This document shows, in pieces, positions 3,933 through 57,949 of a stretch of DNA of 64,000 bases. The position numbers and the translations under genes were made by a program. The DNA is taken from the NCBI GenBank assembly GCA_013359225.1, contig JABWCG010000004.1, positions 1,550-65,549 on the forward strand, given 5' to 3'. The notes under the pieces were generated by a model. The model ran no database searches. It was not told the origin of the DNA and saw only the letters and a list, made by a program, of their open reading frames with translations. Position 1 is the stretch's first letter. Each line of letters opens with the position of its first letter. This DNA comes from Candidatus Buchananbacteria bacterium (GTDB lineage Bacteria; Patescibacteriota; Patescibacteriia; Buchananbacterales; UBA6539).

Positions 3933-3934
3933 TT

Positions 3935-15195: not shown

Positions 15196-15207
15196 ATAGT
15201 TTAATGC

Positions 15208-15426: not shown

Positions 15427-15456
15427 ATTGCTTATTATTAACACATTTAATCAGTT

Positions 15457-15485: not shown

Positions 15486-15508
15486 TTAAAACAGAATTGT
15501 TAAAAAAT

Positions 15509-18218: not shown

Positions 18219-18351
18219 GATTGCCGCTAAAACATCTGGGGTTTTCATTGACACTAGCAACCAGTATTTATTATAATTTAGATAAGGTTATTTAAAATTA
18301 AGGCTGCAAGCGAAAGCAACACAGCTTCCAACCGTGAAAGGGGGTGAGAAA

Positions 18352-18711: not shown

Positions 18712-18790
18712 TAACTAGTTTGAGTTTCAACGGTTATTAGATACATTCAAGCTGGGGAGACCTTCATAACTTTGGGGGTCTCCCCAATTG

Positions 18791-19207: not shown

Positions 19208-19208
19208 C

Positions 19209-19622: not shown

Positions 19623-19623
19623 C

Positions 19624-20025
19624 ATGAGTATGTTACAAAAAACTTTTTTTATTGCCCTGGTTCTGACGCTTGTTTTTCACGGTGTCGGGGTATTAGCTGC
19701 CGGCACACCTATTGGCGAACAAATGGGCGGCGGCCTGAACACCGCCATTGACGAAGTTTATGGCAGAGACGTTACGGTTGATCAAACCACATTTAACAGC
19801 GGTTTAATTACAATTATTAACACCCTGCTAACGTTTACCGGCATCATTTTTTTGCTACTGATCATTTATGCCGGGTACTTATGGATGACCGCACGCGGCA
19901 ACGAAGAACAGGTTGACCGGGCAAAAAAAATTACCCGCGAGGTAGTAATTGGTTTACTGCTAATACTGCTGGCCCGAATTATTACTGAATATATTTTGAT
20001 TCAAATTGGCAAAGCCACTAACTAA
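19624..20025 (+). CDS. TrbC/VirB2-like pilin-family protein (paralog F)
   Basis: Start moved to first ATG (MSMLQK) just after E stop; YAGYLWMTARGNEEQVDRAKKITREVVIGLLLILLARII module. Confidence 0.55.
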   Translation: MSMLQKTFFIALVLTLVFHGVGVLAAGTPIGEQMGGGLNTAIDEVYGRDVTVDQTTFNSGLITIINTLLTFTGIIFLLLIIYAGYLWMTARGNEEQVDRAKKITREVVIGLLLILLARIITEYILIQIGKATN

Positions 20026-20030
20026 AAAGT

Positions 20031-20426
20031 ATGAAAACTATTTACACACTCTTATTACTCAGCATCATTACTGCCGCCCTAGCAACACTAACGCCGGTAC
20101 TGGTCCTGGCACAGGGCGGTGATATTACTCAACAAATGCAAAACAGCCTAGCAAACGTCAGCTTGCCAAGCACTAACAAAGACGAGGGTCGGGTTGAAGT
20201 CATTGTCGGGAAAGTAATCGGCGCATTTTTGAGTATTTTTGGTATTATTTTCATGGTATTAATTATTTTTGGCGGCTATAAATGGATGATGGCTTCCGGC
20301 CGTGAAGAAGAAATTTCCAAGGCCAAAGCTACGATTCGCTCAGCGGTTATCGGCTTAATTATTGTTTTAGCGGCCTACGCTATCACCTTCTTTATTACTA
20401 ATGCTCTACAACAAGCCGTTGGCTAA
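20031..20426 (+). CDS. TrbC/VirB2-like pilin-family protein (paralog G)
   Basis: FGGYKWMMASGREEEISKAKATIRSAVIGLIIVLAAYAITFF module. Confidence 0.55.
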   Translation: MKTIYTLLLLSIITAALATLTPVLVLAQGGDITQQMQNSLANVSLPSTNKDEGRVEVIVGKVIGAFLSIFGIIFMVLIIFGGYKWMMASGREEEISKAKATIRSAVIGLIIVLAAYAITFFITNALQQAVG

Positions 20427-20431
20427 AATGT

Positions 20432-20848
20432 ATGAATGACACACTTAAAAAAGCGACAATTTTTTTCACCGTTATTGCGCTGCTTCTGGCCTTAAACATT
20501 GGATCGGTTTTAGCCCAAGGCACGCTTGACTTGACCGGTAAACTGAAAAACGTCGGCGGTAACGCTGGCTATTCCGCCGAGGTAACTGAAAACACGCTTC
20601 CTAACACCGTCGGAAATATTATCAAGGCCCTGCTATCCCTTTTGGGTATTATTTTTATGTCTTACATTGTGTACGCAGGATATCTCTGGATGACCGCGGC
20701 TGGCAACGATGAAAAAATCACCAAAGCTAAAGCGATTCTTCGCGGCAGCATTATCGGCTTAATTATTGTTTTAGCGGCCTACGCTATCACTCAATTTGTG
20801 CTCGTTTCAATAACTGAGGCAACCGGGTATAGCTCCGCAGGAAGCTAA
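20432..20848 (+). CDS. TrbC/VirB2-like pilin-family protein (paralog H)
   Basis: YAGYLWMTAAGNDEKITKAKAILRGSIIGLIIVLAAYAITQF module. Confidence 0.55.
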   Translation: MNDTLKKATIFFTVIALLLALNIGSVLAQGTLDLTGKLKNVGGNAGYSAEVTENTLPNTVGNIIKALLSLLGIIFMSYIVYAGYLWMTAAGNDEKITKAKAILRGSIIGLIIVLAAYAITQFVLVSITEATGYSSAGS

Positions 20849-20862
20849 TAAACTTCAACTTT

Positions 20863-21303
20863 ATGTTTAGTAAACTTTACCGCTCAATTATTCTGACCCT
20901 TTTGCTACTAGCCGTCGTTGGCATCACGTTCTCATTTGGTGCTATAGACACCAATGCCCAGGAAGGGTTAAGTCTTGATGAAATGACCAAACAAGCGGCC
21001 GGCGCTGCGGGCTACAGCGAAGAAACCAACGAAACCACGTTTGCCAAAATTGTTGGTACGGTAGTTCGGGTATTTCTTTCGTTGCTCGGTGTCATTTTTA
21101 TCTCTTACACTGTATATGGCGGGTTCTTATGGATGACCGCGGCTGGCAACGATGAAAAAATCACCAAAGCAAAGCACATTATCCGCGACGGCATTATCGG
21201 CTTAATCGTCATTCTGTCAGCAGCCGGCATCTACTACTTTATAGCCGAGTTTTTAATTGACACCTCTGGCACTTCCGGCGGCACTATTCCTGGCGGAGGT
21301 TAA
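20863..21303 (+). CDS. TrbC/VirB2-like pilin-family protein (paralog I, Gly-rich C-terminal tail)
   Basis: YGGFLWMTAAGNDEKITKAKHIIRDGIIGLIVILSAAGIYYF module; ends GTSGGTIPGGG. Confidence 0.55.
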   Translation: MFSKLYRSIILTLLLLAVVGITFSFGAIDTNAQEGLSLDEMTKQAAGAAGYSEETNETTFAKIVGTVVRVFLSLLGVIFISYTVYGGFLWMTAAGNDEKITKAKHIIRDGIIGLIVILSAAGIYYFIAEFLIDTSGTSGGTIPGGG

Positions 21304-21314
21304 AAGACAAATCT

Positions 21315-21734
21315 ATGAATAAAAAAATAAAATTTTTACTGACCTTTCTGCTGCTACTAGGCATTTTAACCCTGAACGTGACGCCGGTTTTGGCGCAAGG
21401 CCTCCAGGACCCGGCTAAACAAAAACTTGATGCTCAAAACGAAGCTTTTTTGGCTGAAACCGGACTTGGAACTCAGACGAGTTTGTCACTGATGGTAAGC
21501 GCCATCATCCGAGTATTTCTGTCTTTTCTGGGAGTAATCTTTGTTGTTTTAATTATCTACGCCGGTTTTATGTGGATGACGTCAGCCGGCAATGAAGATA
21601 AAATCAGCAAGGCCAAAAAAATTATGGCTTCCGCCATTATTGGTTTAGCAATCGTACTGGCGGCATACGCCATCACCTACTTTGTACTTGATCAGCTACT
21701 TGAAGCAACTAAGGGCGGCCAAGGACTCGACTAA
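21315..21734 (+). CDS. TrbC/VirB2-like pilin-family protein (paralog J)
   Basis: YAGFMWMTSAGNEDKISKAKKIMASAIIGLAIVLAAYAITYF module. Confidence 0.55.
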   Translation: MNKKIKFLLTFLLLLGILTLNVTPVLAQGLQDPAKQKLDAQNEAFLAETGLGTQTSLSLMVSAIIRVFLSFLGVIFVVLIIYAGFMWMTSAGNEDKISKAKKIMASAIIGLAIVLAAYAITYFVLDQLLEATKGGQGLD

Positions 21735-21755
21735 TCAATCTTGATAAAATAAATA

Positions 21756-21805
21756 GAGGGTGCACTATTTTTTCCGTTCTGGAAAAGTGCACCCTCTTTG
21801 AAAAA
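21756..21805. terminator. bidirectional terminator hairpin (agagggtgcact ... agtgcaccctct)
   Basis: 12-bp perfect inverted repeat with internal sub-hairpin, flanked by A/T runs, between convergent pilin J and the GC-rich lipoprotein gene. Confidence 0.5.
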
Positions 21806-21825
21806 ACAAAGGCTCGCTAGGCTCG

Positions 21826-22404
21826 CTAGGGAGCGACGATTGACCAGTCGCAGGTAAAACCCTCAACTTGGTTATCCGCTTCCACGGTGTCGATATCGCG
21901 CCAACCTCGCAGATAAGCGCTGCTTGATCCGGCGCGATAGAGTTGCACGTAGTACCGATCAGCCGGCAAAAACGTCCACTCTTTAGCACCAGGACCAATG
22001 GTTCGAACCAGCGCGAACTGGCCATAACTGACCTCAAACCGTACTGGCCGGCTTGAAGCGTTATAAAGGACCCCCCGATAGAACTTAAAGGGTCCTCGCG
22101 GCAATGTCGCTGACGGATCAGCATTCAAATCTGGCAAAGCCTTCCAGTAGCTTTCGCCCTGAAGCTCCCAGAATTGCCGCACCGCTTCGTCGCGGTTGGC
22201 GCGCGCCTTCATCCAAGCCTCGACGAAATTCTGGTTGGAGTCGGTATAATGCTCTACTCCTCCCACGTGCAGCTCAGCAGCCTGATAGCCGACCCAATAC
22301 TTGCTGTCTGCGTTCTGCTTTGCCACCAAGGCCGCTCGACCAGTTGGCGTCACGGTACTGCAACCAACCGCCAGCAGCAACACTATTGCACAAATCTGTT
22401 TCAT
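21826..22404 (-). CDS. lipoprotein of unknown function, GC-rich (about 58% GC), probably horizontally acquired
   Basis: Lipobox LLLAVGC; strong AGGAG RBS at 10-nt spacing; composition contrasts with flanking pilin genes; 2x9-bp tandem repeat ggctcgcta at the 3' end. Confidence 0.5.
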   Translation of the reverse strand: MKQICAIVLLLAVGCSTVTPTGRAALVAKQNADSKYWVGYQAAELHVGGVEHYTDSNQNFVEAWMKARANRDEAVRQFWELQGESYWKALPDLNADPSATLPRGPFKFYRGVLYNASSRPVRFEVSYGQFALVRTIGPGAKEWTFLPADRYYVQLYRAGSSSAYLRGWRDIDTVEADNQVEGFTCDWSIVAP

Positions 22405-22570
22405 CGTAAAACCGCTCCTCTTGGTTATCGGCCGCTAGGCCTAATTTTTCAATTCAAAGGGCACTAAAGAACTTTGAATATTAACATAAATTAGCAAATT
22501 TGTCAATAAATATTCCCCTAAAAACAGATAAAATGGTATAATTACCTTACTTAACTTTTAAAATACCTGT

Positions 22571-22990
22571 ATGACCAAAACAGCTTACCTATTTTTACAT
22601 GCCCTAATGGTTTTTACGCTCTTGCTCAGCCTAGTACCGGTTAATGCTCTGGCAGTTAGTGGCGACATTACTGATTTAATGAAAGATCAGCTCGAACCAA
22701 TTGAAGAAGTCTATGATCCGCGCGACGACGTTACCCCATCAACTTTTTCTAAAAACGTTGCTCAAATGATTAATGTCGTGCTTGGATTTCTAGGAATTGT
22801 TTTCCTCATTTTAATCCTCTACGCTGGCTGGATGTGGATGACGTCAGCCGGCAATGAAGATAAAATCAGCAAAGCCAAAAAAACAATGGTTGCCGCCATT
22901 ATCGGAGTGGCGATCATTTTAGCAGCGTACGCCATCTCCTACTTTGTTATTAATCAATTATTGATTGCTACCAAGGGCGAAGGATTATAA
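22571..22990 (+). CDS. TrbC/VirB2-like pilin-family protein (paralog K; closest to J)
   Basis: YAGWMWMTSAGNEDKISKAKKTMVAAIIGVAIILAAYAISYF module. Confidence 0.55.
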   Translation: MTKTAYLFLHALMVFTLLLSLVPVNALAVSGDITDLMKDQLEPIEEVYDPRDDVTPSTFSKNVAQMINVVLGFLGIVFLILILYAGWMWMTSAGNEDKISKAKKTMVAAIIGVAIILAAYAISYFVINQLLIATKGEGL

Positions 22991-23065: not shown

Positions 23066-24997
23066 ATGAAGCCGTCTGTAATCCAATCATGGATCACCAC
23101 CCACAACCGGCAAATTCTTTTTGCGGCAATCGCGCTATATAGCGGATTATTTTCGCTAATCGCTATCTGGAAATACCACAACTTCTACTATACTGCCATT
23201 GATCTGGCAATTTTTAATCAAACTTTTTTCAACTCGCTTTTGGGAAACTGGTTTGGGCTAACCATTCATCCGCCAAGCTACCTAGGCGATCATTTTTCAC
23301 CATTACTCATACTATTACTACCGTTTTATGCCCTGACCAAAAATCCGGAAAGTTTGCTGATACTGCTGGCAACAATCAACGGCCTAAGTGCTTGGCCACT
23401 ATATCTGATTGCCAAAAAAGCGCTGGGTGCTAAACTGGCGCTGCCAGTTGCCCTGGCCTGGTTGCTAAACCCGGTAGTACAAAACACCACGCTGTTTGAA
23501 TTTAATTTTTTGTCGTTTGCCGTGTTCTTTTTGTTCTGGGCGTTTTATAGCTACCAAAGAAAAAAATTCCTGCCGGCAGTCCTCTTTTTACTATTGGCGA
23601 TGCTTGCCCGCGAAGACGTTAGTCTAGTAGTCTTAATGTTTGGCATTGTTGCTTTAGGTCAAAAAAAATCATGGCGTTGGGTTGTTACGCCGTTGATTAT
23701 GGGTTTGGTCTATTTTAGCGCCGCAGTTTTTGTAATAAAAGTCTTCGCCCCGGCCGATGAATATAAATTTTTTATCTACTACCCCTGGATTAATCACCTA
23801 ACAACCCAGCCATGGCTACCGATTATTTATCTGCTACGACCCAATAACATTATCTACCTTATCGGTCTTGGGTTAACGGTAGTTTTTTTACCATTAATAA
23901 GCCCGCTCTTTTTATTACTTGGTGCCATTATAGCGCTACAACTCCTGCTTGGCGGGTCGGGTGGCGGACAACTCCTGCTGGAAACCCACTACTCCAGCCT
24001 GTTATTGCCAGCACTATTTATCGCCTCAATTTATGGCTTAAAAAAAATTTTTGACCCAAACCAGAAACCAACCATTATTAAGCTTGTCAACCAACACCGT
24101 GCACTACTTACTACACTCTTAGTCTTTGGCGTTTTCTATGCTAGCGTAACACTGGGCCCGGCCTCCGGCATTTGGCAGCACCGACACCGAACCGACAACA
24201 GTAAAGCGCGCGCCACCATGCTTCGGCAAATTCCCGACGACCAAGCCGTTGCTAGTAGCTACCAATTTTTACCGACGCTATCCTCGCGAAAAAATATTTA
24301 CTCTTTTAATTATGCCTTTTTAGGCAAGCAGCAATTTTTACGTAGCGACTACAAACTGCCCGAAGACACTACCTGGATCGCTTTAGATTTTTCCGATCTA
24401 ATCACCTACCAAATCCAATACGGCTTCAATCCTTATTACCAAAATCAATACCAGGCCGCGCTTAAAACGTGGCCAAAACTGCTTGATGATTTTGGGCTGG
24501 TGGCCATTACTGATAGCTACGCCCTATACCAACGCAATGCAACTGCAGCCTTTGAACTAGTAAAAATTTTAGACACGCCACCAATTAATGCCAATGCTGT
24601 TTCCCTAACCAACGGGGTGATATTTTTAGGTTACCAAAAAGAAGCCGGACAATATCAACTACTTTGGCAACTCATGCTGCCGCAAGAAATACCTTATCGC
24701 ATACGCCTAGAATTGATTAAAGACGGTAAAACCGTATACCAAAAACTGTATCCCTTTGGATATGATTTATTACTAAACGCACCAGCGGGGCCAGCAAATG
24801 TCCAAACTAATTATTGGTTTAACCCCGACCATCGCGTAGCTCCCGGAACATATGACCTAAAGCTGACGCTGGTCAAGATAATTGATGGCGGTATTGAGGT
24901 TGATGAAATTCGGTCCACTAAAAATGTGATTGATCAGGAAGAAATTATAGGCGAAATATTAAAAACAAAATTTATTGTACCACTTGATACACTGTAA
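23066..24997 (+). CDS. large polytopic membrane protein with C-terminal extracytoplasmic domain (GT-C-fold glycosyltransferase-like)
   Basis: 643 aa, N-terminal roughly 330 aa multi-TM, C-terminal soluble domain; context of GT2/GT-C cluster. Confidence 0.35.
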   Translation: MKPSVIQSWITTHNRQILFAAIALYSGLFSLIAIWKYHNFYYTAIDLAIFNQTFFNSLLGNWFGLTIHPPSYLGDHFSPLLILLLPFYALTKNPESLLILLATINGLSAWPLYLIAKKALGAKLALPVALAWLLNPVVQNTTLFEFNFLSFAVFFLFWAFYSYQRKKFLPAVLFLLLAMLAREDVSLVVLMFGIVALGQKKSWRWVVTPLIMGLVYFSAAVFVIKVFAPADEYKFFIYYPWINHLTTQPWLPIIYLLRPNNIIYLIGLGLTVVFLPLISPLFLLLGAIIALQLLLGGSGGGQLLLETHYSSLLLPALFIASIYGLKKIFDPNQKPTIIKLVNQHRALLTTLLVFGVFYASVTLGPASGIWQHRHRTDNSKARATMLRQIPDDQAVASSYQFLPTLSSRKNIYSFNYAFLGKQQFLRSDYKLPEDTTWIALDFSDLITYQIQYGFNPYYQNQYQAALKTWPKLLDDFGLVAITDSYALYQRNATAAFELVKILDTPPINANAVSLTNGVIFLGYQKEAGQYQLLWQLMLPQEIPYRIRLELIKDGKTVYQKLYPFGYDLLLNAPAGPANVQTNYWFNPDHRVAPGTYDLKLTLVKIIDGGIEVDEIRSTKNVIDQEEIIGEILKTKFIVPLDTL

Positions 24998-26639
24998 CGC
25001 CCTGAGACGAAAACACTTCGTGCAAATACTTATGAAGGGCCGGGTTAAAGCTACCCAGCTCTTTTTCGTAATCACTGTATATGAGGTATGAGATATTATT
25101 AGCCAACAAAAACTCATGCTTTTTATCGGCATAGTCGTTGTCTAAGAAAAACCACTGAATATAGGCTGCCTTGGAGCCAAAAAATAGCGTTTCGTGAGCA
25201 TGGGCCGCATATACCGCATGCCCGGAAAATCCTGGCGCAAATTTAAGCGGAATATCAGCGCCAAACACCACTCCGGCCCGAGACTGCTGGGTCGCCAGCC
25301 AAGCATAGGCGTCAAATAAACCATTGGGCAAAAACAGTTTGGTGGTAATAGCAGGACTGTTGCTGAAAATAAAATAAAAATCGCGGCCAACACTATACAA
25401 ATTTGACGGCATCAGCCAAATCACAAACAACAAAATCAGTAGCACGCTATTATTAATCCAGAAATCATACGTTGCCGGCTTGAGCCGAGTTCGCAGATAT
25501 GCCCCCAATTCGCTTAGACCAATAACCGTAAAAATCACTAAAATAATATGTAGACCCTGCGTATAGCGGCTATGGAAAGGAAACGGCGAATAAATCAAAA
25601 CAATATCAACAATAAACCACGAAAGCAACAACCAGTGACGGCGATCAAACTTTTTTTGGTGCCACAAAAACCATAAGCCCAAAATAAACCCCAGCCACAA
25701 CAGACCGTAACCTAATACCACAAAAATAAAAGGTGAGATATTAGTGACATTTTGAATCGCCCGCTGACCAATCACCGGACTAGCGCCAATCAGCCAAAAA
25801 TGATAAATCACCGACGGTAATGATATTAAAAATACCACTATTAAATAGCCGGCTTCACGCCATAAAAATCGATTAGCCCGCAGCATTAAACCAAACAAAT
25901 AAAGCCCTAAAACACCAAAAATAACCGGAAAATAATATGGGTGAAAATTAAAATAACACAAAGCCAAAACACCACTTACAGCCGCATATACCATTTTTCT
26001 CCTACTTTCAAACGCTAGCGCCATCAGTAAAAAAATAAGAATCATCAGCGTAATTGAGGCGATAAAATGCGACGTTTGATAAAGCGTGTTAAAAGTATTT
26101 GCCTCAGTTAACCATAAATCAATTGGCCAGCGGTAGGGGTCGGGTCCTTCAATGCCCAGCGCGTCAATTGGTGCGGCAACATAAAAACCAAGGCCGCTAG
26201 AAAAAAGTAAAAAGATAAGTGCGGTTAGTCGCACCGCGCGGTCGGAAAAAAAGTAAGCGATAAAAATATAAGCTACTGTTAAAAAAACAGGAATCATAAT
26301 CAGCCGCGAAAGTTGAAACGCTAAAATAACCGGCAGATTAAATATGCCCGCCAACTGCCCAATCCAAGCCCACCATATATTCAAGGTTCCGAATGCTTGC
26401 GGTTCAGGAGTTAATAAGTTTTTTACGAATATTTCGCCGCTACGGGCCTGATTGATATATGAATAATAAACAGGAATATCTCCGGGACTTAACGCGTGCA
26501 AACCATTATAGGTAAAACCATTAGGTGCAAAAAAATACCCCGCCAAATATGGCAGGCCGGTAATAATAATCATCACTAGCGCCAACAACCAAACCAAGCG
26601 CCATTCTTGTTGACTGATAGTGGCTAAAATTTTTTTCAT
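24972..26639 (-). CDS. GT-C-like polytopic membrane protein (tandem paralog 1 of 2)
   Basis: 555 aa, more than 12 TM, shares N-terminal EWRLV...YYSYINQA(R/K)SG(E/K)I motif with the next gene. Confidence 0.4.
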   Translation of the reverse strand: MKKILATISQQEWRLVWLLALVMIIITGLPYLAGYFFAPNGFTYNGLHALSPGDIPVYYSYINQARSGEIFVKNLLTPEPQAFGTLNIWWAWIGQLAGIFNLPVILAFQLSRLIMIPVFLTVAYIFIAYFFSDRAVRLTALIFLLFSSGLGFYVAAPIDALGIEGPDPYRWPIDLWLTEANTFNTLYQTSHFIASITLMILIFLLMALAFESRRKMVYAAVSGVLALCYFNFHPYYFPVIFGVLGLYLFGLMLRANRFLWREAGYLIVVFLISLPSVIYHFWLIGASPVIGQRAIQNVTNISPFIFVVLGYGLLWLGFILGLWFLWHQKKFDRRHWLLLSWFIVDIVLIYSPFPFHSRYTQGLHIILVIFTVIGLSELGAYLRTRLKPATYDFWINNSVLLILLFVIWLMPSNLYSVGRDFYFIFSNSPAITTKLFLPNGLFDAYAWLATQQSRAGVVFGADIPLKFAPGFSGHAVYAAHAHETLFFGSKAAYIQWFFLDNDYADKKHEFLLANNISYLIYSDYEKELGSFNPALHKYLHEVFSSQGVTVYQVVQ

Positions 26640-28282
26640 AAAACTTGATAAATTATTACTTCGCTGTTGCGATACACCTCCTGTAAATACGTTTTAGAAG
26701 ATGGATCATAATCCCCCAAAGCCCGTTCGTCCGGACCGTAATAAATCAAGGTAATGCCGCGCTGGGTTAAAAATGATTTTTCCGTTTCGTCGGGCCGGTT
26801 AGTTTCAAAAAACCAGTTTACTTCTCCCTGCTTAAAATTAAAAAACGGAGTTTCGACTCCGTGTCCGACATAGACACGCTGATTAGCGAAAGCTGGTAAA
26901 ACATTAATGATGTTTGCCGCTGTGTTTAAAACAACGCCCTCTGGCACCTGCTCCAGCCAGCGGGCCGCTACCACCTTTGACTGTTCCAAATATGACAAGT
27001 TCAGATGATTGGTGTACATATAGTAATTAACGGCAATGTGAAAAACGTTTGAAGTAATCAGTAAAAACCCTAAAGTGAATGAGAGCCCGTACCGCTTTTG
27101 GTATAACATCCTGGCCACTGGATGACGGCTGGTCGTCATCCAAACAGACAGCTGTATTAATGCCACAGTCGCCAAAAGTGCCAACGGAACGTGTAACCCT
27201 TGGGTCATGCGGCGCTGCCATGGCACCGGAGCAAAAATCAACAGTCCCTGAAACACCAACCAGGTTATTAAAAAAATCTCAGTGGTTGATTGCTTGCCTC
27301 TCTTGATATACCACCCCACCGCTCCCGCGGCTAAAATAAGCAACAAACCATAGCTAACCAAAACAATCCACCACGGTGGCGTTAGGGTCAAATTCTGCAA
27401 TGTTTTTTGACTAATAACCGGATCAATCTTGATTAATAACAAATAATAAAACACTGACGGGAAAGCCAGCACGCTAAAAATAAAATAGTACCAAAATAAC
27501 GGCCAATGCCAAGCCCGATCGCGCACTACCAGCACTAGAAAAAAAATCAAGATAAAACCATAGATGGTTAAAACGTGAAAAGGATGAAAAGAAAAAAGCG
27601 CTAACCCGATTAGTCCGGCGACAACAGGATACCAATAATTAGCCTGAAGCGTAAACAAAAGCGTTAACCAGAAAATAAGTAAAATCAGAATTGATGAAGC
27701 AATAAAATGCGGCGAATAGTGCAAAGTCAGATAGGTAAAGGCTTCCGGCACCCATAAATCAAGCGGCCAATTGAATTGCCCGTTGGAAAAATTATTCGGA
27801 TATCGAATAAGGCGGTCAATTAAAAGCAACCCCAGCCCAGAACTGAAGCTCAACATAATAATGCTCAGCTTCCTTTTAACTAAATCCGAAAAAATAGTTG
27901 CAATCAATAGATACGCCGTCGCCATAAAAACCGGAATCAACATAATACGAGCGGCCTGAAACGCCACAAATGCCGATAGATCAAAAATTCGAGCCAGCCA
28001 GCCGACCGCTAACCAACAGATATTCAAGGTTGGCAGCTGATGGTCGGCTGAAAACAAATTATCAAACAAAATTTTACCGCTTTTAGCCTGATTGATGTAT
28101 GAATAATATACAAACCAGTCATTAGGGGCCGAAAAATGCACCCCCATAAAAACCTTGTCGGAAGGCGTAATTAAAAAACCATAGACCAACGGTGCGGTAG
28201 TAATCACAATCAAAAATAAACTTAAAAGAATGACCAGGCGCCATTCCTTTTTACTAATTGATCGAAAAATTTGCTTAATCAT
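26636..28282 (-). CDS. GT-C-like polytopic membrane protein (tandem paralog 2 of 2)
   Basis: Start set at internal ATG (MIKQIFRSISKKEWRL) matching the paralog N-terminus; 4-nt overlap with downstream gene. Confidence 0.4.
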   Translation of the reverse strand: MIKQIFRSISKKEWRLVILLSLFLIVITTAPLVYGFLITPSDKVFMGVHFSAPNDWFVYYSYINQAKSGKILFDNLFSADHQLPTLNICWLAVGWLARIFDLSAFVAFQAARIMLIPVFMATAYLLIATIFSDLVKRKLSIIMLSFSSGLGLLLIDRLIRYPNNFSNGQFNWPLDLWVPEAFTYLTLHYSPHFIASSILILLIFWLTLLFTLQANYWYPVVAGLIGLALFSFHPFHVLTIYGFILIFFLVLVVRDRAWHWPLFWYYFIFSVLAFPSVFYYLLLIKIDPVISQKTLQNLTLTPPWWIVLVSYGLLLILAAGAVGWYIKRGKQSTTEIFLITWLVFQGLLIFAPVPWQRRMTQGLHVPLALLATVALIQLSVWMTTSRHPVARMLYQKRYGLSFTLGFLLITSNVFHIAVNYYMYTNHLNLSYLEQSKVVAARWLEQVPEGVVLNTAANIINVLPAFANQRVYVGHGVETPFFNFKQGEVNWFFETNRPDETEKSFLTQRGITLIYYGPDERALGDYDPSSKTYLQEVYRNSEVIIYQVL

Positions 28283-28970
28283 GGTAATTAAAACGATAAA
28301 CAATCAACAACCATAATGCCTTACATCCATCAATCCAGCTGATTTTTTTACCTTCATTAAATTGTCGTGGCCGGTAGCTGATTGGCAGCTCTAAAATCTT
28401 AATTCCCTGCCTTAGAACTTTTGCCGTTACCTCAACCTCAAATCCAAAATCATTTTGTCGTAACGACAGCTGACGTAACAATGGGCCGCTAAAAACCTTA
28501 TAACACGTTTCAACGTCCGTAATCTGCGCCCGATATAAAACCTGAGCCAGCCACGAAATTAGCTTATTGCCCAAATAATAACTCAAATGCCCGACCGGAT
28601 TTTTGCTAATCATCCGCGAACCGTACGCCACCTTTGCCTGCCCCCGAACTATCGCCTGAACCAATGGTTCAAGATCAGGGGGGCTATATTCCAAATCAGC
28701 ATCCTGAATCGCCACAATATCACCGGTAGTGTGTTTAAATCCCTGCCGCAAGGCCGCACCCTTACCCTGATTGTGTTCGCTGAAAATAACACGCCAGTTT
28801 GGTCGGTTGATCATTTTTAACAAATCAATCGTGCCGTCAGTTGAACCGTCATCGACAATTACCACCTCTTTATCCAAGCCGGTAATCTCCAGCCGGTCCA
28901 CCTTGTTTAAAATTTCCGCAATGTACTTTTTCTCATTATAAACCGGGATAACAATAGAAAGCGTTGGCAT
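28275..28970 (-). CDS. family-2 glycosyltransferase (polyprenyl-phosphate sugar synthase, Dpm1/GtrB-like)
   Basis: LSIVIPVYNE ... VVIVDDGSTDGT ... DADL motifs. Confidence 0.7.
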   Translation of the reverse strand: MPTLSIVIPVYNEKKYIAEILNKVDRLEITGLDKEVVIVDDGSTDGTIDLLKMINRPNWRVIFSEHNQGKGAALRQGFKHTTGDIVAIQDADLEYSPPDLEPLVQAIVRGQAKVAYGSRMISKNPVGHLSYYLGNKLISWLAQVLYRAQITDVETCYKVFSGPLLRQLSLRQNDFGFEVEVTAKVLRQGIKILELPISYRPRQFNEGKKISWIDGCKALWLLIVYRFNYHD

Positions 28971-28974
28971 ACCC

Positions 28975-29685
28975 TTAACGAGATTTTTGATTCCTTAGTT
29001 TTAAAACTTTCCAAAAACTTTCGATGATAATTTTGATGCTAAATTTAGACTTGCCTTCGGCTCGTTCCGTAAAAATAATAGGAATCTCAACAATTTTATA
29101 CCCGGCTAAATGAACCTTATACGTGGTTTCAATTTGAAAGTTGTACCCCACCGAACTAAAATCAGCTAAACCAATTTTCTCTAAAACGGTCCGGCGATAA
29201 CACTTAAATCCTCCCGTCAAATCGTGATATGGTAGCCCTAAAACAGCTCGGGCATACAAATTACCAAAACGGCTAATCAACCGACGGCTCCAATTCCAGT
29301 TAGTTACTCCGCCGCCGGCAATATAGCGAGAACCAAGCACTAAATCGGCCGATTCAATCGCACGTAAAAAGTCTGGGATATATTTAGGATCATGGGAAAA
29401 GTCAGCATCCATCTCAAAAATATACTCCGCACCAGCCCGTAATGCATGCTCAAATCCGGCCAGATAAGCCCGCCCAAGCCCGTCTTTGGTCTGACGGCTC
29501 AGCAGCTCCAGATTGGCAAAGCGAGACTGAAGCGACGTAACCAGTTCACCGGTCCGGTCCGGAGAATTGTCGTCAACAATCAAAACATGCACATCATTAA
29601 TCCCTAAGGCAAAAATTGTTTCAAGTAGCCTTTGGACGTTTCCTCGCTCATTATATGTTGGAATAACTAAGTATGTTTTAGCCAT
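28975..29685 (-). CDS. family-2 glycosyltransferase (dolichyl/polyprenyl-phosphate mannose synthase-like)
   Basis: YLVIPTYNERGNV...VLIVDDNSPDRT...DADFSH motifs typical of Dpm1-like enzymes. Confidence 0.75.
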   Translation of the reverse strand: MAKTYLVIPTYNERGNVQRLLETIFALGINDVHVLIVDDNSPDRTGELVTSLQSRFANLELLSRQTKDGLGRAYLAGFEHALRAGAEYIFEMDADFSHDPKYIPDFLRAIESADLVLGSRYIAGGGVTNWNWSRRLISRFGNLYARAVLGLPYHDLTGGFKCYRRTVLEKIGLADFSSVGYNFQIETTYKVHLAGYKIVEIPIIFTERAEGKSKFSIKIIIESFWKVLKLRNQKSR

Positions 29686-29687
29686 AT

Positions 29688-30398
29688 TTACATAAGTCTT
29701 TTTCGCAACTCCAAAACGTGTTTAAGATACGCCAGTGCCAGTGACCACGGCTTAACGCGACTTTTATCTGACCCTTCGCGCGGATCTTGCCAAATCACCG
29801 GTATTTCTTTAATGCGATAGCCCTGATGGGCGGCCAAAATTAAGAGCTCCGAATCAAAAAACCACTGGTCATTTTGCACGTGGGGTAATAAATTTTCTTT
29901 AATTTTACTATTAATTGCCTTAAACCCACAAGGCGCGTCTTTAACTCGCAGACCAACCAATAATCGCAAAGCCAAGCGATAGCCCAAAGAAAATACCCGG
30001 CGCGTTAACGATCTTTTCACCAGCGAATCAGGGTGGTACCGGCTGCCGACCGCTAAATCATACCCGCTGGCCAAGCCGTCGATTAAAGCGGGCAAAGCAG
30101 CTAAATCGGTAGCCAAATCGGCGTCCATAAAACAATATACGTCGGCTGAAAAATTATTCCAGCCCGCTCGAATAGCCGCACCCTTGCCCCTCACTGGAAC
30201 CATTAAATATTTAACCTGAAAAAATTTTGCCGCCAACGATTGAACAATCAAAGCGGTCTGATCTGTTGATTGGTTGTCAGCGACGACTACCTCCCAATCG
30301 ACTGTTAGATTTTTTGAAGCAAAGCTAACCACACGCTCAACCGTTGACTGAATGAGCGTTTCCTCATTATAAGCAGGAATAACGATTAAAACTTTCAT
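29688..30398 (-). CDS. family-2 glycosyltransferase (Dpm1/GtrB-like), third tandem copy
   Basis: VLIVIPAYNEE...VVVADNQSTD...DADL motifs. Confidence 0.7.
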   Translation of the reverse strand: MKVLIVIPAYNEETLIQSTVERVVSFASKNLTVDWEVVVADNQSTDQTALIVQSLAAKFFQVKYLMVPVRGKGAAIRAGWNNFSADVYCFMDADLATDLAALPALIDGLASGYDLAVGSRYHPDSLVKRSLTRRVFSLGYRLALRLLVGLRVKDAPCGFKAINSKIKENLLPHVQNDQWFFDSELLILAAHQGYRIKEIPVIWQDPREGSDKSRVKPWSLALAYLKHVLELRKRLM

Positions 30399-31759
30399 AT
30401 GATTTTAAACTTGTTTTCCCGACGGACGAAATAATAAAAGCCAAAAACCAATGTTGGGATAATCATTGCCACTGGCATTAAAACCGACGAATATGGCGAG
30501 ATGATAACAAAGCCGGTCAAAAAAACCGCGGGCAAATAAAAAAATTTTTTTGATAAAAACATTAACGGTATCAACCAAATCAAATATTTCGGATAAAACC
30601 AAAACTTGGCCAGCAGCAAAAACCAGCTTAAAATGATCACGCTGCTGTACACCATGGTTGACGCCGTCATCTCCATAACGCGCCAAAACCGATACAAAGT
30701 CAACGCATAAATGGCGACAAAAAATAATTCAAAAATCACCTTCAAAGAATACCATTCCAAAGTCGGACTGACAAAATAAAATATAATGCTAACTAACCCC
30801 GGAAATGAATTAACATCAAAAAATCGCCCGACCCAAACTACCCCATCTAGCGTGCCGGCCCCCTGCCAAAACGGGGCAAAAAATCCAAGCGTCATCAAGA
30901 CCAGGGTTGCTGTTTGATATGCAGCCACTTTTAACTTAGCTCCTGTAGTCGACTGACGACGCCAAAAATATATCAAAAAAATTGGTACTAATAAAATAGT
31001 GACATACTTAATCAAAACCGACAAACCAAGAGCAGCAATCGCTAAAACGGGTCTTTCTTTAATCGCCAAATACACCGCCGCCAGCAGCCAAAACACCAAT
31101 AAGATATCAGTGCCACCTCCGGCAAACGTACCAAACAGTATTAACGGATTCCACGCACACAGCAAATAAATAAAAATAGCCTTGGCAGGATCAAACTGCC
31201 GGGCAATCTGATATGCCAGCCAAGCTGACAGCGCCGTAAATACGGCAAATATAACTTTGTATAAAAAAATCCCAATAACAATGCTCCCCTGGCTTAACCA
31301 GGCTGCCGGTACTGTCAATAAAAACCGTGCTGGGCCGTGCTGGGCCGGTAAAAACTGCCAGCCACTCAAGACTGCCAGCGGCTCGTGCGGCACATTAAGT
31401 GGGGCAACAAAATACGGATTTTGCTGGTACTTAACAATCACGATATCTTCAAAAAAATAATGGTAAAAATCATTGTATTCCCCCGGCACCATCAACACCA
31501 TGATCAGTATAAAAACAGCTCCAAAAAATAAAATGGTTTGAAGCTCGTCACGTTTCCAAGAATGATTTTGATAAAATTGAAACAACAAAAAATAAACTAC
31601 ATACAACCCCAATAAGGCCATTGAGGTTATGACATATGCTGAATCTAAATAATCAAACCGATTAATAATCAGAGCGAGGACGAAATAAAAAAAGGCCGAA
31701 ATCAGCCCCCACATCACCAATGGCTTGTTAAATAAAAAATTTTTAAACATGTTATTCAT
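30395..31759 (-). CDS. polytopic membrane protein, GT-C/DUF2029-like glycosyltransferase
   Basis: 454 aa, more than 10 TM; 4-nt overlap with GT2. Confidence 0.35.
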   Translation of the reverse strand: MNNMFKNFLFNKPLVMWGLISAFFYFVLALIINRFDYLDSAYVITSMALLGLYVVYFLLFQFYQNHSWKRDELQTILFFGAVFILIMVLMVPGEYNDFYHYFFEDIVIVKYQQNPYFVAPLNVPHEPLAVLSGWQFLPAQHGPARFLLTVPAAWLSQGSIVIGIFLYKVIFAVFTALSAWLAYQIARQFDPAKAIFIYLLCAWNPLILFGTFAGGGTDILLVFWLLAAVYLAIKERPVLAIAALGLSVLIKYVTILLVPIFLIYFWRRQSTTGAKLKVAAYQTATLVLMTLGFFAPFWQGAGTLDGVVWVGRFFDVNSFPGLVSIIFYFVSPTLEWYSLKVIFELFFVAIYALTLYRFWRVMEMTASTMVYSSVIILSWFLLLAKFWFYPKYLIWLIPLMFLSKKFFYLPAVFLTGFVIISPYSSVLMPVAMIIPTLVFGFYYFVRRENKFKII

Positions 31760-33314
31760 TCAACCGATATATCTTTGCCTCTTGATTACTAAACACTTCC
31801 TCAAACAACGGCTCGTCCGCCAAATGGTTGGCAAAAGATTCATTTTGCTTAATGTCAACAAAAACATACCGAGCATTATACAAATTCTTGATTTTAACAT
31901 ACAAATCCTGATCATCGTGTCCCGTTACAATGTCAACCCAGCGCTGATGTAGCCCCGGATCATATTCATACATAAACGTCGGGTCTAAGCCGACCAAATA
32001 ATAATTTTGGTCGTTATGATAAAACAAAATCGGAAATTCATCCCAATCACTGTGAAATACCACGTCACCAGGCTGACTATTTTCCTTCAACCAGCGCGCC
32101 GGCTCTTCAAATTTATTAAAAGCAAAACCGCGGCGGTAAAAATCCTTGACCGATGCTAAGTCGCGGGCCGCCACCGGTATTAACCCAATCACGATAACGG
32201 CAAAAAGCAGCCAAAGATATTTGCGCGAAATCAGGCGAACAATTTCTCCTTCAAATTGACGCACCAATACGTTAAGGCTCAGTGCCGAAAAAATTAAAGC
32301 CAGGGGGATAAAATACTCAACATAACGACGCGATTTTAAGGTGAGGGCAAAAAACAAAAAACTGACCACTAGAAAAAACCAAGAGTTCATCGGCTGCTTG
32401 TCATAAAAAATAATGAACGCTAGCAAGGCAATCAACACTAGGGCAAAAAAAGGAATTGCACTAGCCAATAAATCTAGCGGGCTGTATGGGTACCACTCAG
32501 CGCCAACATCAATAATATACTGATAATTAACCACAGCGATCTTAAATGACTGCTGCCAATAAAAATTAAGGTTGGTTGGAAAATAGGGGCTAAAGAATAA
32601 CCCGGCAGCAAGCCCGATTACAATACTTAAAAGCAGCCAGGCGTTCTGCCAATGCAATTTTAACCGGTCAAGCTTGAACTTGAACCAGCCGCGCTGTGAT
32701 ATATTCCAAAACCAGTTAACTGCCGCGTATAAAAATCCCAATAATAGCAATAAAGGCCAACCAGCATACGACCAAACGTACACACAGGAAACCAAAATCA
32801 GCCCGATATAATTACGTCGCAACAAGAAAAATAAAAATAAAAACAGCAGCAGCAGCACAACCTGCTGGGCTTTTGCCAGGCTCAAGCGAAATACAAACGG
32901 GTTAACAGTAATTAGAAACAAAGCATACCAAAATGCTCCCCTAACCTGCAGGCTGCGTAAAAACCAAAATAGTGCCAAAATAGTCAGGCTAGAAAAAATA
33001 ACCGTAAACACCTTAAGCCCAATCAAAGGTGTTAACAACAAAACAAACGGCACCAAAAGAATATGGTATAAAAAGTGATGGTCAATAAATCCACGCGCCA
33101 AGGTTGTCACCGAAAGCCATGGAAATTCGGTAATTGCTCCCTTGGTAATTAAAAACTCGGTTAGCTTAGCATGATAAAAAGAATCCGGATCAGCAAATGT
33201 CTGATCAAAATGCAGATAACCAAAAATACCAAGGCCAATGATAAATAAAAGGCAATATAAAATATACGGCCGATGATTCAAAAAAGTAACTATACTATTG
33301 ATGGCTCGTCCCAT
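31752..33314 (-). CDS. polytopic membrane protein, GT-C-like glycosyltransferase with C-terminal extracytoplasmic domain
   Basis: 520 aa, roughly 12 TM then soluble domain; overlapping starts and stops within the cluster. Confidence 0.35.
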   Translation of the reverse strand: MGRAINSIVTFLNHRPYILYCLLFIIGLGIFGYLHFDQTFADPDSFYHAKLTEFLITKGAITEFPWLSVTTLARGFIDHHFLYHILLVPFVLLLTPLIGLKVFTVIFSSLTILALFWFLRSLQVRGAFWYALFLITVNPFVFRLSLAKAQQVVLLLLFLFLFFLLRRNYIGLILVSCVYVWSYAGWPLLLLLGFLYAAVNWFWNISQRGWFKFKLDRLKLHWQNAWLLLSIVIGLAAGLFFSPYFPTNLNFYWQQSFKIAVVNYQYIIDVGAEWYPYSPLDLLASAIPFFALVLIALLAFIIFYDKQPMNSWFFLVVSFLFFALTLKSRRYVEYFIPLALIFSALSLNVLVRQFEGEIVRLISRKYLWLLFAVIVIGLIPVAARDLASVKDFYRRGFAFNKFEEPARWLKENSQPGDVVFHSDWDEFPILFYHNDQNYYLVGLDPTFMYEYDPGLHQRWVDIVTGHDDQDLYVKIKNLYNARYVFVDIKQNESFANHLADEPLFEEVFSNQEAKIYRLNE

Positions 33315-33316
33315 AC

Positions 33317-34396
33317 TTAACGCTGTCTATCAAGCTGACGTTTAAAGTAATCAACCCACGGAATAAGGTTTGGATTAATATTATTAAGCAATGCTAAATA
33401 AAAAGTGGCATAACTGCCAAGCGATAAAATCTCTAACGCCTGACCCAACCGATCTTGCGCAGTGACAGTATACGACAGCTGTTTAATGGCATTCTTACGG
33501 ACTACCTGTTTAGTCACTGAGAATCGCAACTGGTTTTTGGGGTAGTAAAGCTTTGACTCAAAAAACATAAACAGCAGACTGGTCCGATTCGTTTTTGGAT
33601 TTTTTAAACTTTCTAGTAGATGGTGGTTAAGTTCGGGAATGGCATAATAGGTTGAAAACGTTTTACCGGTTTCATTAGTTTGATTGGCAAAAATATGGGC
33701 GGTGCCAACCAGATGTTCCGACGCCACTATCACCGCCGCATTGCCGGCCAAAGCTAGCGCCATCTTTTTTGCCGGATTCTTAGACTGGGTGACAGAAAAA
33801 CCAAAGCGCTGGTTACATTTTTTCAGTAAAGCTAATTGCTGCTTGATATCAAAGTCGGTTATTCGTAAGAGCCCTAGTTTATTAAACAGTGCTAGCTGAG
33901 CCGTCAGCGAATAGCCCAACCCTAATCGCGGCTGACCGGACGGATTAGCAACCGGGTCAAAAACAAAACCAGGGATTTTACCGGAAGTAATCAGCTGCCC
34001 AAGCTTGCCCCCGGCGGCAATGCCAAAAATTTTAGCACCACGACGCCTGGCTTCGGCGATTGTCGCCAACGGTTCTTCTGTATTACCCGAATAACTTGAA
34101 ACGATATATAGGGTTTTATTATCTATATAGCCTGGCAACTCATAGCTGTTCACAATCACAAACGGCTTTTGTAGCTCTTTGAAATAAACCGAGGACAATA
34201 AATGCGCCCCTAATTGAGAGCCTCCCATCCCATTAAGCACAATTTTATTAATCTGCCGATATGATTTTGGCACACTCACTTTCTTAAAATCGCGCCAGGC
34301 AGAGGCCACTTGTTCTCCCAGCTGCGCTACCGCCTCAAGCGCGTGCCCCGGGTCCAGTTTGGCAACTATTTTTTCATCATCTAAACGACTAGTCAT
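33317..34396 (-). CDS. bifunctional phosphoglucose/phosphomannose isomerase (SIS-domain PGI/PMI family)
   Basis: SIS-domain pattern (YIVSSYSGNTEE, GGKLGQL) and bifunctional PGI/PMI C-terminal region. Confidence 0.55.
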   Translation of the reverse strand: MTSRLDDEKIVAKLDPGHALEAVAQLGEQVASAWRDFKKVSVPKSYRQINKIVLNGMGGSQLGAHLLSSVYFKELQKPFVIVNSYELPGYIDNKTLYIVSSYSGNTEEPLATIAEARRRGAKIFGIAAGGKLGQLITSGKIPGFVFDPVANPSGQPRLGLGYSLTAQLALFNKLGLLRITDFDIKQQLALLKKCNQRFGFSVTQSKNPAKKMALALAGNAAVIVASEHLVGTAHIFANQTNETGKTFSTYYAIPELNHHLLESLKNPKTNRTSLLFMFFESKLYYPKNQLRFSVTKQVVRKNAIKQLSYTVTAQDRLGQALEILSLGSYATFYLALLNNINPNLIPWVDYFKRQLDRQR

Positions 34397-35734: not shown

Positions 35735-36670
35735 ATGAACAAATCTGAAATTCGCAAAGATTATATTCAAGATAAATATGTTATTATTGCGCCGCGACGC
35801 AACAATCGCCCGCACGACATTGAAAAACCAGTCCGACAGCCAGTCCCTAAAAAGGATTGCGTATTTTGTCCGAAAGCAGTCGATAAAAACAACACCGTTT
35901 TAGCCACCACTAAAAAAACAGCTGGGGCAAAAGAGCCCTGGGCCGTTAAGGTTATTGCTAATAAATTTCCGTCAGTAACTACTGACAACCCCAAAGCATA
36001 CGGCCGGCAAGAAGTTATTGTGGAAACCCCTAATCACCAGCATGAAACCGAAGAACTTTCCGACAGCCGGGTGGTTGAGATTTTAAAAACCTACGCCGAT
36101 CGGACCAAAAAAATATCTGAGGACAAAAAAATCGACTACATCTTGATTTTTAAAAATAACGGCGGCGCCGCCGGGGCATCGCTTCAACACGCCCACTCCC
36201 AAATTTTTGCCACCGAATTTTTGCCACCGAATTTACGGGATAAATCCGACAAAATCCATGATTACAAAATCAGAACCGGCCGGTGCGTCTTTTGCGATGT
36301 AATTAAAAAAGAAAAGACCGGGCCGCGGCTGATATTTCAGGACAAACATATGATTGCATTTTGCCCATATGCTTCGCGACACAACTATGAGGTTTGGCTC
36401 ATGCCTAAAAGACATCTGGATAACATTACTTTAATTAACGAACAAGAATTAAAAAGCTTCGCCCGATTTCTTAAAAAAATTCTTAAAAAAATTAATAAAT
36501 TAGGTTTGCCGTACAACTATTACTTTCATCAAGTAATCAAAGACGAAGACCAGCATTTTTACATGAAAATTACCCCGCGAGGTTCTGTTTGGGCTGGAGT
36601 GGAAATTGCCGCCGGACTCATTATCAATCCCATTGCTCCGGAAGAGGCGGCGAAATTTTATCGCCAATAA
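35735..36670 (+). CDS. galactose-1-phosphate uridylyltransferase-like HIT-superfamily protein
   Basis: CxxC Zn site (CVFCP) and HAHSQ (HxHxQ) active-site motif. Confidence 0.5.
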   Translation: MNKSEIRKDYIQDKYVIIAPRRNNRPHDIEKPVRQPVPKKDCVFCPKAVDKNNTVLATTKKTAGAKEPWAVKVIANKFPSVTTDNPKAYGRQEVIVETPNHQHETEELSDSRVVEILKTYADRTKKISEDKKIDYILIFKNNGGAAGASLQHAHSQIFATEFLPPNLRDKSDKIHDYKIRTGRCVFCDVIKKEKTGPRLIFQDKHMIAFCPYASRHNYEVWLMPKRHLDNITLINEQELKSFARFLKKILKKINKLGLPYNYYFHQVIKDEDQHFYMKITPRGSVWAGVEIAAGLIINPIAPEEAAKFYRQ

Positions 36671-57896: not shown

Positions 57897-57949
57897 GCGT
57901 TTTAGCATAACCAGTGATCCGTCGCGATGGCTGGTTCATTTTTTTAAAA

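Follow-up and report, generated by a model that had tools for sequence, protein, structure and literature searches.

A predicted extracytoplasmic glycosylation locus with a hypervariable gene cassette in Candidatus Buchananbacteria and related Patescibacteria

Multi-component transmembrane glycosylation systems are represented by GtrA/B/Gtr* in Shigella, CsbB/GtcA/YfhO and GtlA/GtlB in Firmicutes, and GacI/J/K/L in Streptococcus pyogenes (PMC8035078, PMC11127046), and they include a variant in which a cytoplasmic glycosyltransferase (GT) of the GT-A fold is combined with a Wzx-type flippase (PMC11127046, PMC8035078). In this work we analyse a stretch of 64,000 nucleotides from the metagenome-assembled genome of an ultra-small, uncultured Candidatus Buchananbacteria bacterium of the Parcubacteria group (assembly GCA_013359225.1, contig JABWCG010000004.1, positions 1,550 to 65,549 of the forward strand; hereafter the window), in which a block of nine genes, A to I, encodes three enzymes of glycosyltransferase family 2 (GT2), five large polytopic membrane proteins and a sugar-phosphate isomerase. 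Judged by sequence comparison and structural models, the locus would be one more multi-component transmembrane glycosylation system, of a kind that is already well known; what is new here is its context in the candidate phyla radiation (CPR, Patescibacteria), the recognition of two families of 'hypothetical' proteins as GT-C enzymes, the variability of a gene cassette at a fixed site and the conserved adjacency to an array of VirB2-like pilin genes.

The nine open reading frames (ORFs) at 23066-34396 are exactly those listed beforehand and leave no further free ORF in this interval; the ORF listing and the family assignments together confirm the nine-gene glycosylation block that the initial annotation had delimited:

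A, 23066-24997 (+): 643-aa polytopic membrane protein of the DUF2079 family
B, 24972-26639 (-): 555-aa membrane protein of predicted GT-C fold, from a family found only in Patescibacteria (NCBI HUU49_04885)
C, 26636-28303 (-): 555-aa tandem paralog of B
D, 28275-28970 (-): 231-aa soluble GT2
E, 28975-29685 (-): 236-aa soluble GT2
F, 29688-30398 (-): 236-aa soluble GT2
G, 30395-31759 (-): 454-aa polytopic GT-C candidate (PMT_2/GT87-like)
H, 31752-33314 (-): 520-aa membrane protein of predicted GT-C fold with STT3-like architecture (NCBI HUU49_04915)
I, 33317-34396 (-): 359-aa SIS-family phosphoglucose/phosphomannose isomerase (PGI/PMI)

On the minus strand, successive genes are separated by gaps of 2-4 nt or overlap by 4-29 nt, and therefore I-H-G-F-E-D-C-B form one compact eight-gene operon that begins with I; its last gene, B, converges on A, the 3' ends of the two overlapping by 26 nt. 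The TTG start listed for C may lie too far upstream. Each of the five membrane proteins (A, B, C, G and H) contains between 8 and 13 hydrophobic segments. B, H and A match their NCBI entries at 100% identity, that of A bearing the title 'DUF2079 domain-containing protein'. The dnaN and dnaA genes lie at 40698-43483, 8-20 kb from the block, and the sign of the GC skew switches there. The block is not a chance assemblage, since its order recurs in dozens of related genomes at protein identities of 35-75%.

As in the three-component systems, genes for polyprenyl-phosphate-sugar synthases of the GT-A/GT2 type appear to be encoded beside those for GT-C transferases; as in the GacI/GacK/GacL variant, the GT-A enzymes are devoid of transmembrane (TM) helices, and a putative Wzx-type flippase is encoded in the wider locus, outside the block; and, as in seroconversion loci, the cassettes vary from strain to strain. 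What sets it apart from the three-component systems is that three synthases and five GT-C proteins are encoded together, with neither a GtrA-type flippase nor a small membrane partner, that two of the GT-C families (B/C and H) are unrecognisable by sequence and that it resides in a monoderm CPR bacterium. The actinobacterial systems built on Ppm1 and GT-C enzymes (MptA/B/C, PimE, Emb/Aft), and Pmt, likewise combine a Dpm1-like soluble catalytic domain (here E, with its DADxSHxP motif) with several GT-C families, mannosyl- and arabinosyltransferases that draw on polyprenyl-phosphate sugars on the outer side of the membrane, and GT87/MptA_B-like members occur in cassettes related to ours; here, in contrast, there is no Ppm2/Lnt-like partner, there are no phosphatidylinositol-mannoside genes and no evidence of lipomannan, and the similarity of the block's proteins to GT87 and PMT_2 is marginal.

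Enzymes of the block

The three GT2 proteins match Glycos_transf_2 (PF00535; E-values 2e-37, 5e-32 and 4e-24 for D, E and F, respectively), share 26-30% identity in pairs and contain no hydrophobic segment or TM helix. Their top relative in the PDB is the dolichyl-phosphate mannose synthase (DPMS) of Pyrococcus furiosus (5mlz), followed by ArnC and GtrB. Protein E aligns with DPMS over residues 24-246 of the latter, a stretch that contains the DAD motif (E-value 2.9e-33, 118 bits), and D and F match the same structure with E-values of 1e-20 and 2e-18, ArnC being the next match of both. In the alignment of E with DPMS, 'MDADFSHDPKYIP' stands opposite 'MDADLQHPPEVIP', and the short motif MDADFSHDP of E faces MDADLQHPP of 5mlz. 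For all three proteins the alignments with DPMS, ArnC and GtrB take in the whole catalytic domain but break off at the start of the TM domain that those enzymes carry; the processive synthases PgaC, NodC and chondroitin synthase score lower and align only with the N-terminal ~100 residues. These similarities support the placement of D, E and F in the polyprenyl-phosphate-sugar synthase branch, in agreement with what had been proposed from the first reading of the sequence.

Protein E is the most Dpm1/Ppm1-like of the three, its motif DADFSHDPK conforming to the Dpm1/Ppm1 signature DADxSHxP, and it is a candidate polyprenyl-phosphate-mannose synthase. Among the NCBIfam models, D scores best with AglJ (112.6 bits, cut-off 325) and F with PgfS (65.8 bits, cut-off 500), the best scores of E reaching 42-56 bits against cut-offs of 325-529. 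For comparison with relatives, family hidden Markov models were mapped on 80 related loci, in which D belongs to an orthogroup of some eight members plus scattered singletons (motif DADLEYxP, DADLEY in D itself), E to one of 23 members (DAD[LF]SH[DN]P) and F to one of 41 members (DADLATDL). Since these are three old orthogroups with differing motifs, D, E and F are not recent duplicates, and they probably make three different lipid-linked sugars. The F-type enzyme is the GT2 that most often adjoins H in related genomes and the sole GT2 of minimal loci consisting of H and one GT2.

The larger membrane proteins are less easily named. B and C are tandem paralogs, as had been noticed at the outset, with 35% identity over their full length (E-value 1e-99) and with C aligning within the family of B. 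Neither they nor H match any Pfam or NCBIfam family; a Pfam scan at E<=1 of 54 H-family and 52 B/C-family members matched no GT-C model; single-sequence and profile searches of the PDB returned nothing meaningful for B or H; and members of the B and H families are called 'hypothetical protein' in every source. AlphaFold2 models built from alignments of 52 B/C-family and 54 H-family homologues (pLDDT 95.1 and pTM 0.94 for B; 94.2 and 0.93 for H) gave, in Foldseek searches of the PDB, 26 hits for B and 23 for H at E<1e-3, and all of them are GT-C enzymes. STT3 of the yeast and human oligosaccharyltransferase complexes comes first (query TM-score 0.50-0.58 for B and 0.62-0.70 for H), followed by AglB, PglB, DPY19, AftA/AftD, ALG9/ALG12 and ArnT; the best 18 hits of H are STT3, AglB, PglB and DPY19, at TM-scores of 0.58-0.70. 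On the strength of these predicted models, the B/C and H families are GT-C enzymes that previously went without annotation, an assignment that is new here.

Sequence conservation falls at positions that may be relevant to catalysis. The first external loop is the hallmark position of the catalytic or donor-binding Asp of GT-C enzymes, and acidic residues are invariant in this loop of the predicted models, namely D54 in B and D42/D44 in H, the latter within DPDSFYH. D54, D174 and H233 are invariant in the B/C family, as are P43, D44, F46, Y47, H48, R143, K148, E273, W274, R330, W424 and D425 in the H family. The C-terminal third of H is homologous to that of B/C: profile-profile alignment of the two families with hhalign gives 97.7-97.9% over the last TM helices and the C-terminal soluble domain.

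The likeness of H and B to STT3, AglB and PglB extends to a GT-C_A fold that ends, outside the membrane, in a mixed alpha/beta domain (13 TM helices in the model of H), to the acidic first-loop motif of H and to an invariant W424-D425 pair (SDWDEFP), located just past the beta-strand that follows the last TM helix of the predicted model, at a site presumably comparable to that of WWDYG in STT3. At that site, however, H reads SDWDEF, only W-D being conserved, so that WWDYG itself is not present; the second external loop of the model holds the conserved R143 and K148 and no acidic DxD or DxH; and among the 54 H-family members no match to the STT3 Pfam model turns up even at a threshold of E<=1. 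H is also shorter, at 520 aa, than the smallest known AglB (~590 aa), and a GT2 beside it implies monosaccharide-phosphate-lipid rather than oligosaccharide donors, its neighbours showing no sequon signal. In view of its failed STT3 sequence membership, its second loop and its genomic pairing with a monosaccharide-lipid synthase, we do not classify H as an oligosaccharyltransferase.

An exhaustive profile search with the H family retrieves 3541 representatives of 50%-identity clusters at E<=1e-3, 1516 of them at E<=1e-30. Patterns taken from its alignment hit 283 genomes at the species level, and each of the 80 that were inspected belongs to Patescibacteria by name or by synteny. Many metagenome-assembled genomes with this patescibacterial synteny bear the title 'uncultured Gammaproteobacteria bacterium' (L005, L009, L016, L029, L032, L048 and others) and are probably mislabelled. 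Phage-borne copies, as in seroconversion phages, were considered and rejected, given that IMG/VR contigs contain no relatives of H or B/C.

For A and G, single-sequence searches of the PDB returned nothing meaningful, and the assignment draws on family models and on profile-profile links. A matches DUF2079 (PF09852) over residues 37-446 (E-value 1.4e-53; 183 bits, cut-off 28.2), has eight hydrophobic segments and ends in a domain of ~190 aa without annotation; D46, D75-H76 and R182-E183-D184 are conserved in 39 homologues, D46 being the conserved acidic residue of the first external loop. DUF2079 presumably belongs to the GT-C clan of Pfam. G has thirteen hydrophobic segments and scores marginally above the gathering cut-off of PMT_2 (26.8 vs 26.1 bits) and below that of GT87 (E-value 0.005, 17.1 vs 25 bits). 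In an hhalign network of family alignments from related loci (single-sequence comparisons of G with H and of A with B/C gave nothing useful), the A family is linked to B/C with 75% probability over 366 columns, the G family to the PMT_2 group (93%), to group c8 (94%) and to the H family (90%), and the PMT_2 group of related cassettes to B/C (96%). All five membrane proteins appear to be tied together by this profile network, which supports A and G as GT-C-type proteins and, with the predicted folds of B and H, upholds the earlier view of five large GT-C-like membrane proteins. Searches of the literature on Patescibacteria and GT-C, or on DUF2079, returned nothing.

That these membrane proteins are transporters or permeases, or that the GT2 proteins are processive, membrane-integrated synthases, must be considered extremely improbable. 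The one observation in favour of such a reading is the want of family annotation for B, C and H; against it, transporters occur only at noise level in the Foldseek lists of B and H, the hits at E<1e-3 being GT-C alone, and the GT2 proteins are 231-236 aa long with no hydrophobic segment and resemble processive synthases only over the partial, lower-scoring alignments mentioned above. Both cases that the initial annotation had named as refuting it, transporters and processive GT2 with integral TM domains, therefore fail.

A variable cassette in a conserved locus

The genes that could supply sugars to the block, and those of the wider locus in which it is embedded, are the following:

1520-2959 (+): Wzx-type flippase (Polysacc_synt, E-value 7e-23)
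within 1520-5218 (+), between the flippase gene and the next: HD-domain protein
3935-5218 (+): Wzy_C/O-antigen-ligase (PglL-like) protein (Wzy_C, E-value 6e-10)
15497-17754 (+): GalU, UDP-glucose pyrophosphorylase (TIGR01099, 327.5 vs 326.8 bits), and a solute-binding protein, SBP (SBP_bac_1, E-value 4e-32)
17751-22990 (+): ten VirB2/TrbC-like (T4SS_pilin, PF18895) genes
35735-36670 (+): GalT, galactose-1-phosphate uridylyltransferase (TIGR00209, 109.3 bits, cut-off 102.1)

The isomerase I contains bact-PGI_C (E-value 3.5e-24) and SIS domains, and its best NCBIfam matches are bifunctional PGI/PMI models, with 243.6 bits for NF006425 (cut-off 471) and 211 for NF006426 (cut-off 295); in 58 loci it adjoins H on the same strand, often with a gap of 2-9 nt. 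PGI/PMI is also the ordinary glycolytic isomerase type of this lineage. That the isomerase feeds a mannose donor, as first proposed, would be plausible for E; however, the window encodes neither a phosphomannomutase nor a GDP-mannose pyrophosphorylase, and the sugar-nucleotide enzymes encoded near the block, GalU and GalT, belong to UDP-Glc/UDP-Gal metabolism. The genes for GalU, SBP and the first pilin are joined by 4-nt overlaps (at 16372/16375 and 17751/17754), and their order is conserved across loci. The SBP itself (16372-17754, +) is a 460-aa protein of the sugar type whose gene, throughout the related loci, is joined by overlaps to those of GalU and of the first pilin; no ABC permease or ATPase gene lies nearby. 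In some relatives (L083 and L084) Wzx, Wzy_C, GalU, SBP and the pilin genes are contiguous. In our window, ~10 kb appear to have been inserted between Wzy_C and GalU, encoding a T4SS_pilin, a 738-aa protein (weakly EccB-like), a methyltransferase, a subtilase, BsuPI, DUF6076 and SET-domain proteins.

Across relatives the conserved backbone runs dnaA-dnaN-PBP1-(GalT)-RuvC-YebC, then PGI-H-cassette-(DUF2079), then VirB2-like pilin array-SBP-GalU. H is the constant member of the cassette, and what lies between it and the pilin genes is hypervariable. The cassette is empty in L059, L069 and L075, holds a single F-type GT2 in L029 and L045, and extends to G-F-E-D-C-B-A in our window. The 43 complete cassettes on which the counts are based contain 0-3 GT2 and, including H, 1-6 GT-C genes, and DUF2079 is present in 32 of them. 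Extra GT-C families found in other cassettes comprise PMT_2, DUF2079-like, MptA_B, YfhO-like and PTPS_related proteins, and further inserts encode a 716-aa membrane enzyme of the LtaS/sulfatase type, PAP2_3 and methyltransferases. In close relatives (L001, 4759-6909, with equivalents in L003, L005, L006, L010, L012 and L013), a polytopic protein of 692-725 aa, in which an LtaS/EptA-like sulfatase domain is combined with a metal-binding motif of the MopE type, takes the place of G and the third GT2. The LtaS-type, PAP2 and methyltransferase content, as predicted from family matches, is typical of envelope-polymer loci, and the variability of the cassette is the behaviour that would be expected of a surface-glycan diversity locus.

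It might be argued that these genes do not constitute a single pathway, being neighbours only by virtue of origin-proximal synteny, with PGI serving glycolysis and the GT-C proteins acting in unrelated envelope processes. The gene order from dnaA to GalU is indeed kept across relatives at 32-60% protein identity, PGI, YebC, RuvC and PBP1 are housekeeping genes, and many cassettes carry GT-C genes and no GT2. Nevertheless, the eight genes make up a single overlap-coupled operon, GT2 genes come and go in company with GT-C genes at just this position (the copy numbers of GT2 and B/C correlate, if weakly; Spearman 0.36, p 0.017), and GT-C enzymes require lipid-linked donors of the kind that these GT2 enzymes are predicted to make, so that we regard mere neighbourhood as very unlikely. 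The coherent glycosylation pathway suggested initially retains its core, GT2 and GT-C genes in one operon, with the qualification that the block is no autonomous unit: it forms the variable part of a conserved locus that extends beyond it.

Candidate acceptors and the pilin array

The ten genes upstream of A, called a pilin array in the initial annotation, do not encode type IV pilins: all of them match T4SS_pilin/TrbC and are VirB2-like. Their products have a Sec-type signal peptide, a variable exposed segment of ~27 aa and two C-terminal TM helices. Arrays of this kind in Patescibacteria, including their position near dnaA, have already been described (441 arrays of 2-11 genes; PMC12102498), and ours agrees with them in having ten T4SS_pilin genes near dnaA, upstream of A; adjacency of the arrays to a DUF2079/GT-C glycosylation cassette is not reported there (PMC12102498). 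In the cultivated saccharibacterium Candidatus Southlakia epibionticum, according to a report cited in PMC12102498, a VirB2-like array is essential.

The proximity of this array to A bears on the idea that the system glycosylates proteins, with surface proteins as targets of some or all of the GT-C enzymes. A, presumably co-transcribed with the VirB2-like pilin genes, would modify the pilins, and H, as a minimal enzyme of the STT3/PMT type, would modify other secreted proteins, along the lines of actinobacterial Ppm1 and Pmt, of streptococcal Pgf or GtrB/PgtC2, or of archaeal AglJ/AglD with AglB/AglS. There are precedents for such a pathway (PMC12041528, PMC5856776), and several of our results are consistent with it: A is encoded on the strand of the pilin genes, 75 nt past the last of them, with no terminator-like site in between; pilins and A share a strand in 32 loci, with gaps mostly of 37-130 nt, and GalU, SBP, pilins and DUF2079 are co-directional in all loci examined; the best structural matches of H are STT3, AglB and PglB, and its invariant W424-D425 pair falls at a site presumably comparable to that of WWDYG; and the best-scoring NCBIfam models of D and F are AglJ and PgfS. 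The streptococcal O-glycosylation systems (PgfS/PgfM1/PgfM2 and GtrB/PgtC2; PMC12041528, PMC5856776) are similar, too, in pairing a GT2 undecaprenyl-phosphate-sugar synthase with a GT-C enzyme, F being nearest to PgfS, if far below the cut-off of that model.

The sequences of the putative acceptors do not favour this idea. N-x-S/T sequons are not enriched in the exposed regions of 193 array pilins, where 37 were observed against 45.5 +/- 5.9 in shuffled sequences, a slightly low count that lends no support to the pilins as N-glycosylation targets. Ser/Thr-rich acceptor regions, which the initial annotation had proposed to look for, are likewise wanting: in the pilins and other secreted proteins encoded in the window, the Ser+Thr content of every 25-aa stretch stays below 44%, save in a folded Ig domain of PBP1a, and unlike in the streptococcal systems no disordered region of that composition is found, so that O-glycosylation of the Pgf or GtrB/PgtC2 kind is likewise unsupported for these proteins. 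As to the enzyme side, H has the non-acidic second loop described above (R143/K148 in place of a DxD) and no member of its family is recognised by the STT3 model. Moreover, the adjacency of pilins and A is confined to one vertically inherited synteny block: the more distant DUF2079 homologues (32-36% identity) all lie in the same inherited synteny, and the adjacency is therefore inseparable from descent. Taken together, the idea that the pilins are substrates is left without sequence support, and we rate protein glycosylation as an unlikely, if serious, alternative.

Two further features of the array deserve mention. A perfect sigma-70 consensus (TTGACA-18 nt-TATAAT, 12/12) is present at 18248-18277 (+), just upstream of the second pilin gene, which suggests that the array may be very strongly expressed. 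On the opposite strand, inside the array, a 192-aa ORF (21826-22404, -) encodes a putative lipoprotein with the signal MKQICAIVLLLAVGC|S; it has a GC content of 55-58% against ~43% around it, no Pfam match and a nearby promoter-like sequence (TTGACA-17-TAATAT at 22506-22478). L019 and L012 have homologues of it at the corresponding position, but the small proteins encoded there in L028 and L083 show no significant similarity to it, and the ORF may be a horizontally acquired insert.

Elsewhere in the window, a 679-aa fusion protein (57914-59953, +) combines a CMP-Kdo/CMP-sugar synthetase resembling KdsB, which at 240 bits clears the cut-off of the subfamily, with a C-terminal domain weakly like alpha-2,8-polysialyltransferase (E-value 3e-6). 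One would not expect a pathway of the Kdo or sialic-acid type in a monoderm member of the CPR. A tRNA-Ser(CGA) gene at 15291-15379 (-) lies inside the 5' part of a listed SET-domain ORF (14458-15444, -), so that the SET-domain gene must in fact start farther downstream, past the tRNA.

Proposed pathway and its implications

We consider it likely that the block works by a mechanism in which polyprenyl-phosphate-linked donors are used by GT-C enzymes. On the cytoplasmic face, the peripheral GT-A/GT2 enzymes D, E and F would each load one monosaccharide from a nucleotide sugar onto polyprenyl phosphate, E most likely using GDP-mannose and D and F probably UDP-hexoses derived from the neighbouring GalU and GalT. 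The lipid-linked monosaccharides would be flipped across the membrane, a step for which the Wzx-type protein encoded in the wider conserved locus is a candidate. On the outer face, the GT-C enzymes A, B, C, G and H would pass the sugars on to surface acceptors, and these enzymes presumably differ from one another in linkage or in acceptor specificity. The acceptor would most likely be a cell-envelope glycopolymer or lipoglycan, which is favoured over a protein because of the many GT-C enzymes and of the LtaS, PAP2 and methyltransferase companions, a preference that we hold with about even confidence. Given its strong variation among relatives, the cassette probably makes the surface glycan differ between strains.

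Several observations weigh against this reading. There is no GT2 in 20 of the 43 complete cassettes, and 16 of these 20 nonetheless carry extra GT-C genes, and donor synthases must therefore sometimes be encoded elsewhere; D, E and F all score below every NCBIfam equivalog cut-off, so that their sugars are not nameable; neither a flippase nor a small GacJ/DPM2-like membrane partner is encoded within the block (23066-34396); no pathway for a glycopolymer backbone was identified; and glycosylation in Patescibacteria has been termed 'unexplored' (PMC11623550). In sum, the earlier interpretation was essentially right about a GT2/GT-C pathway, with the qualifications that its pilin substrate lacks sequence support, that the pilins are VirB2-like and that the block is part of a larger locus. 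A bolder proposal, to which we attach only a slight probability, is that H is a CPR-wide minimal relative of STT3 which, with the DUF2079 enzyme, glycosylates pilins or host-contact proteins, the cassette providing a strain-specific glycan code for host or phage recognition among these episymbionts.

Next to nothing is known about the surface chemistry of Patescibacteria, which live in attachment to other microbes. The locus described here points to an origin-proximal hot-spot of predicted extracytoplasmic glycosylation genes in a large CPR lineage, comprising Buchanan-, Falkow-, Kerfeld- and Komeilibacteria and their relatives, situated between housekeeping genes and the VirB2-like array. The prediction of a GT-C fold for two sizeable families of 'hypothetical proteins' would, in turn, allow better annotation of thousands of metagenomic proteins. 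Finally, if the acceptor proved to be a host-contact structure, the variable cassette would become a candidate determinant of host range.

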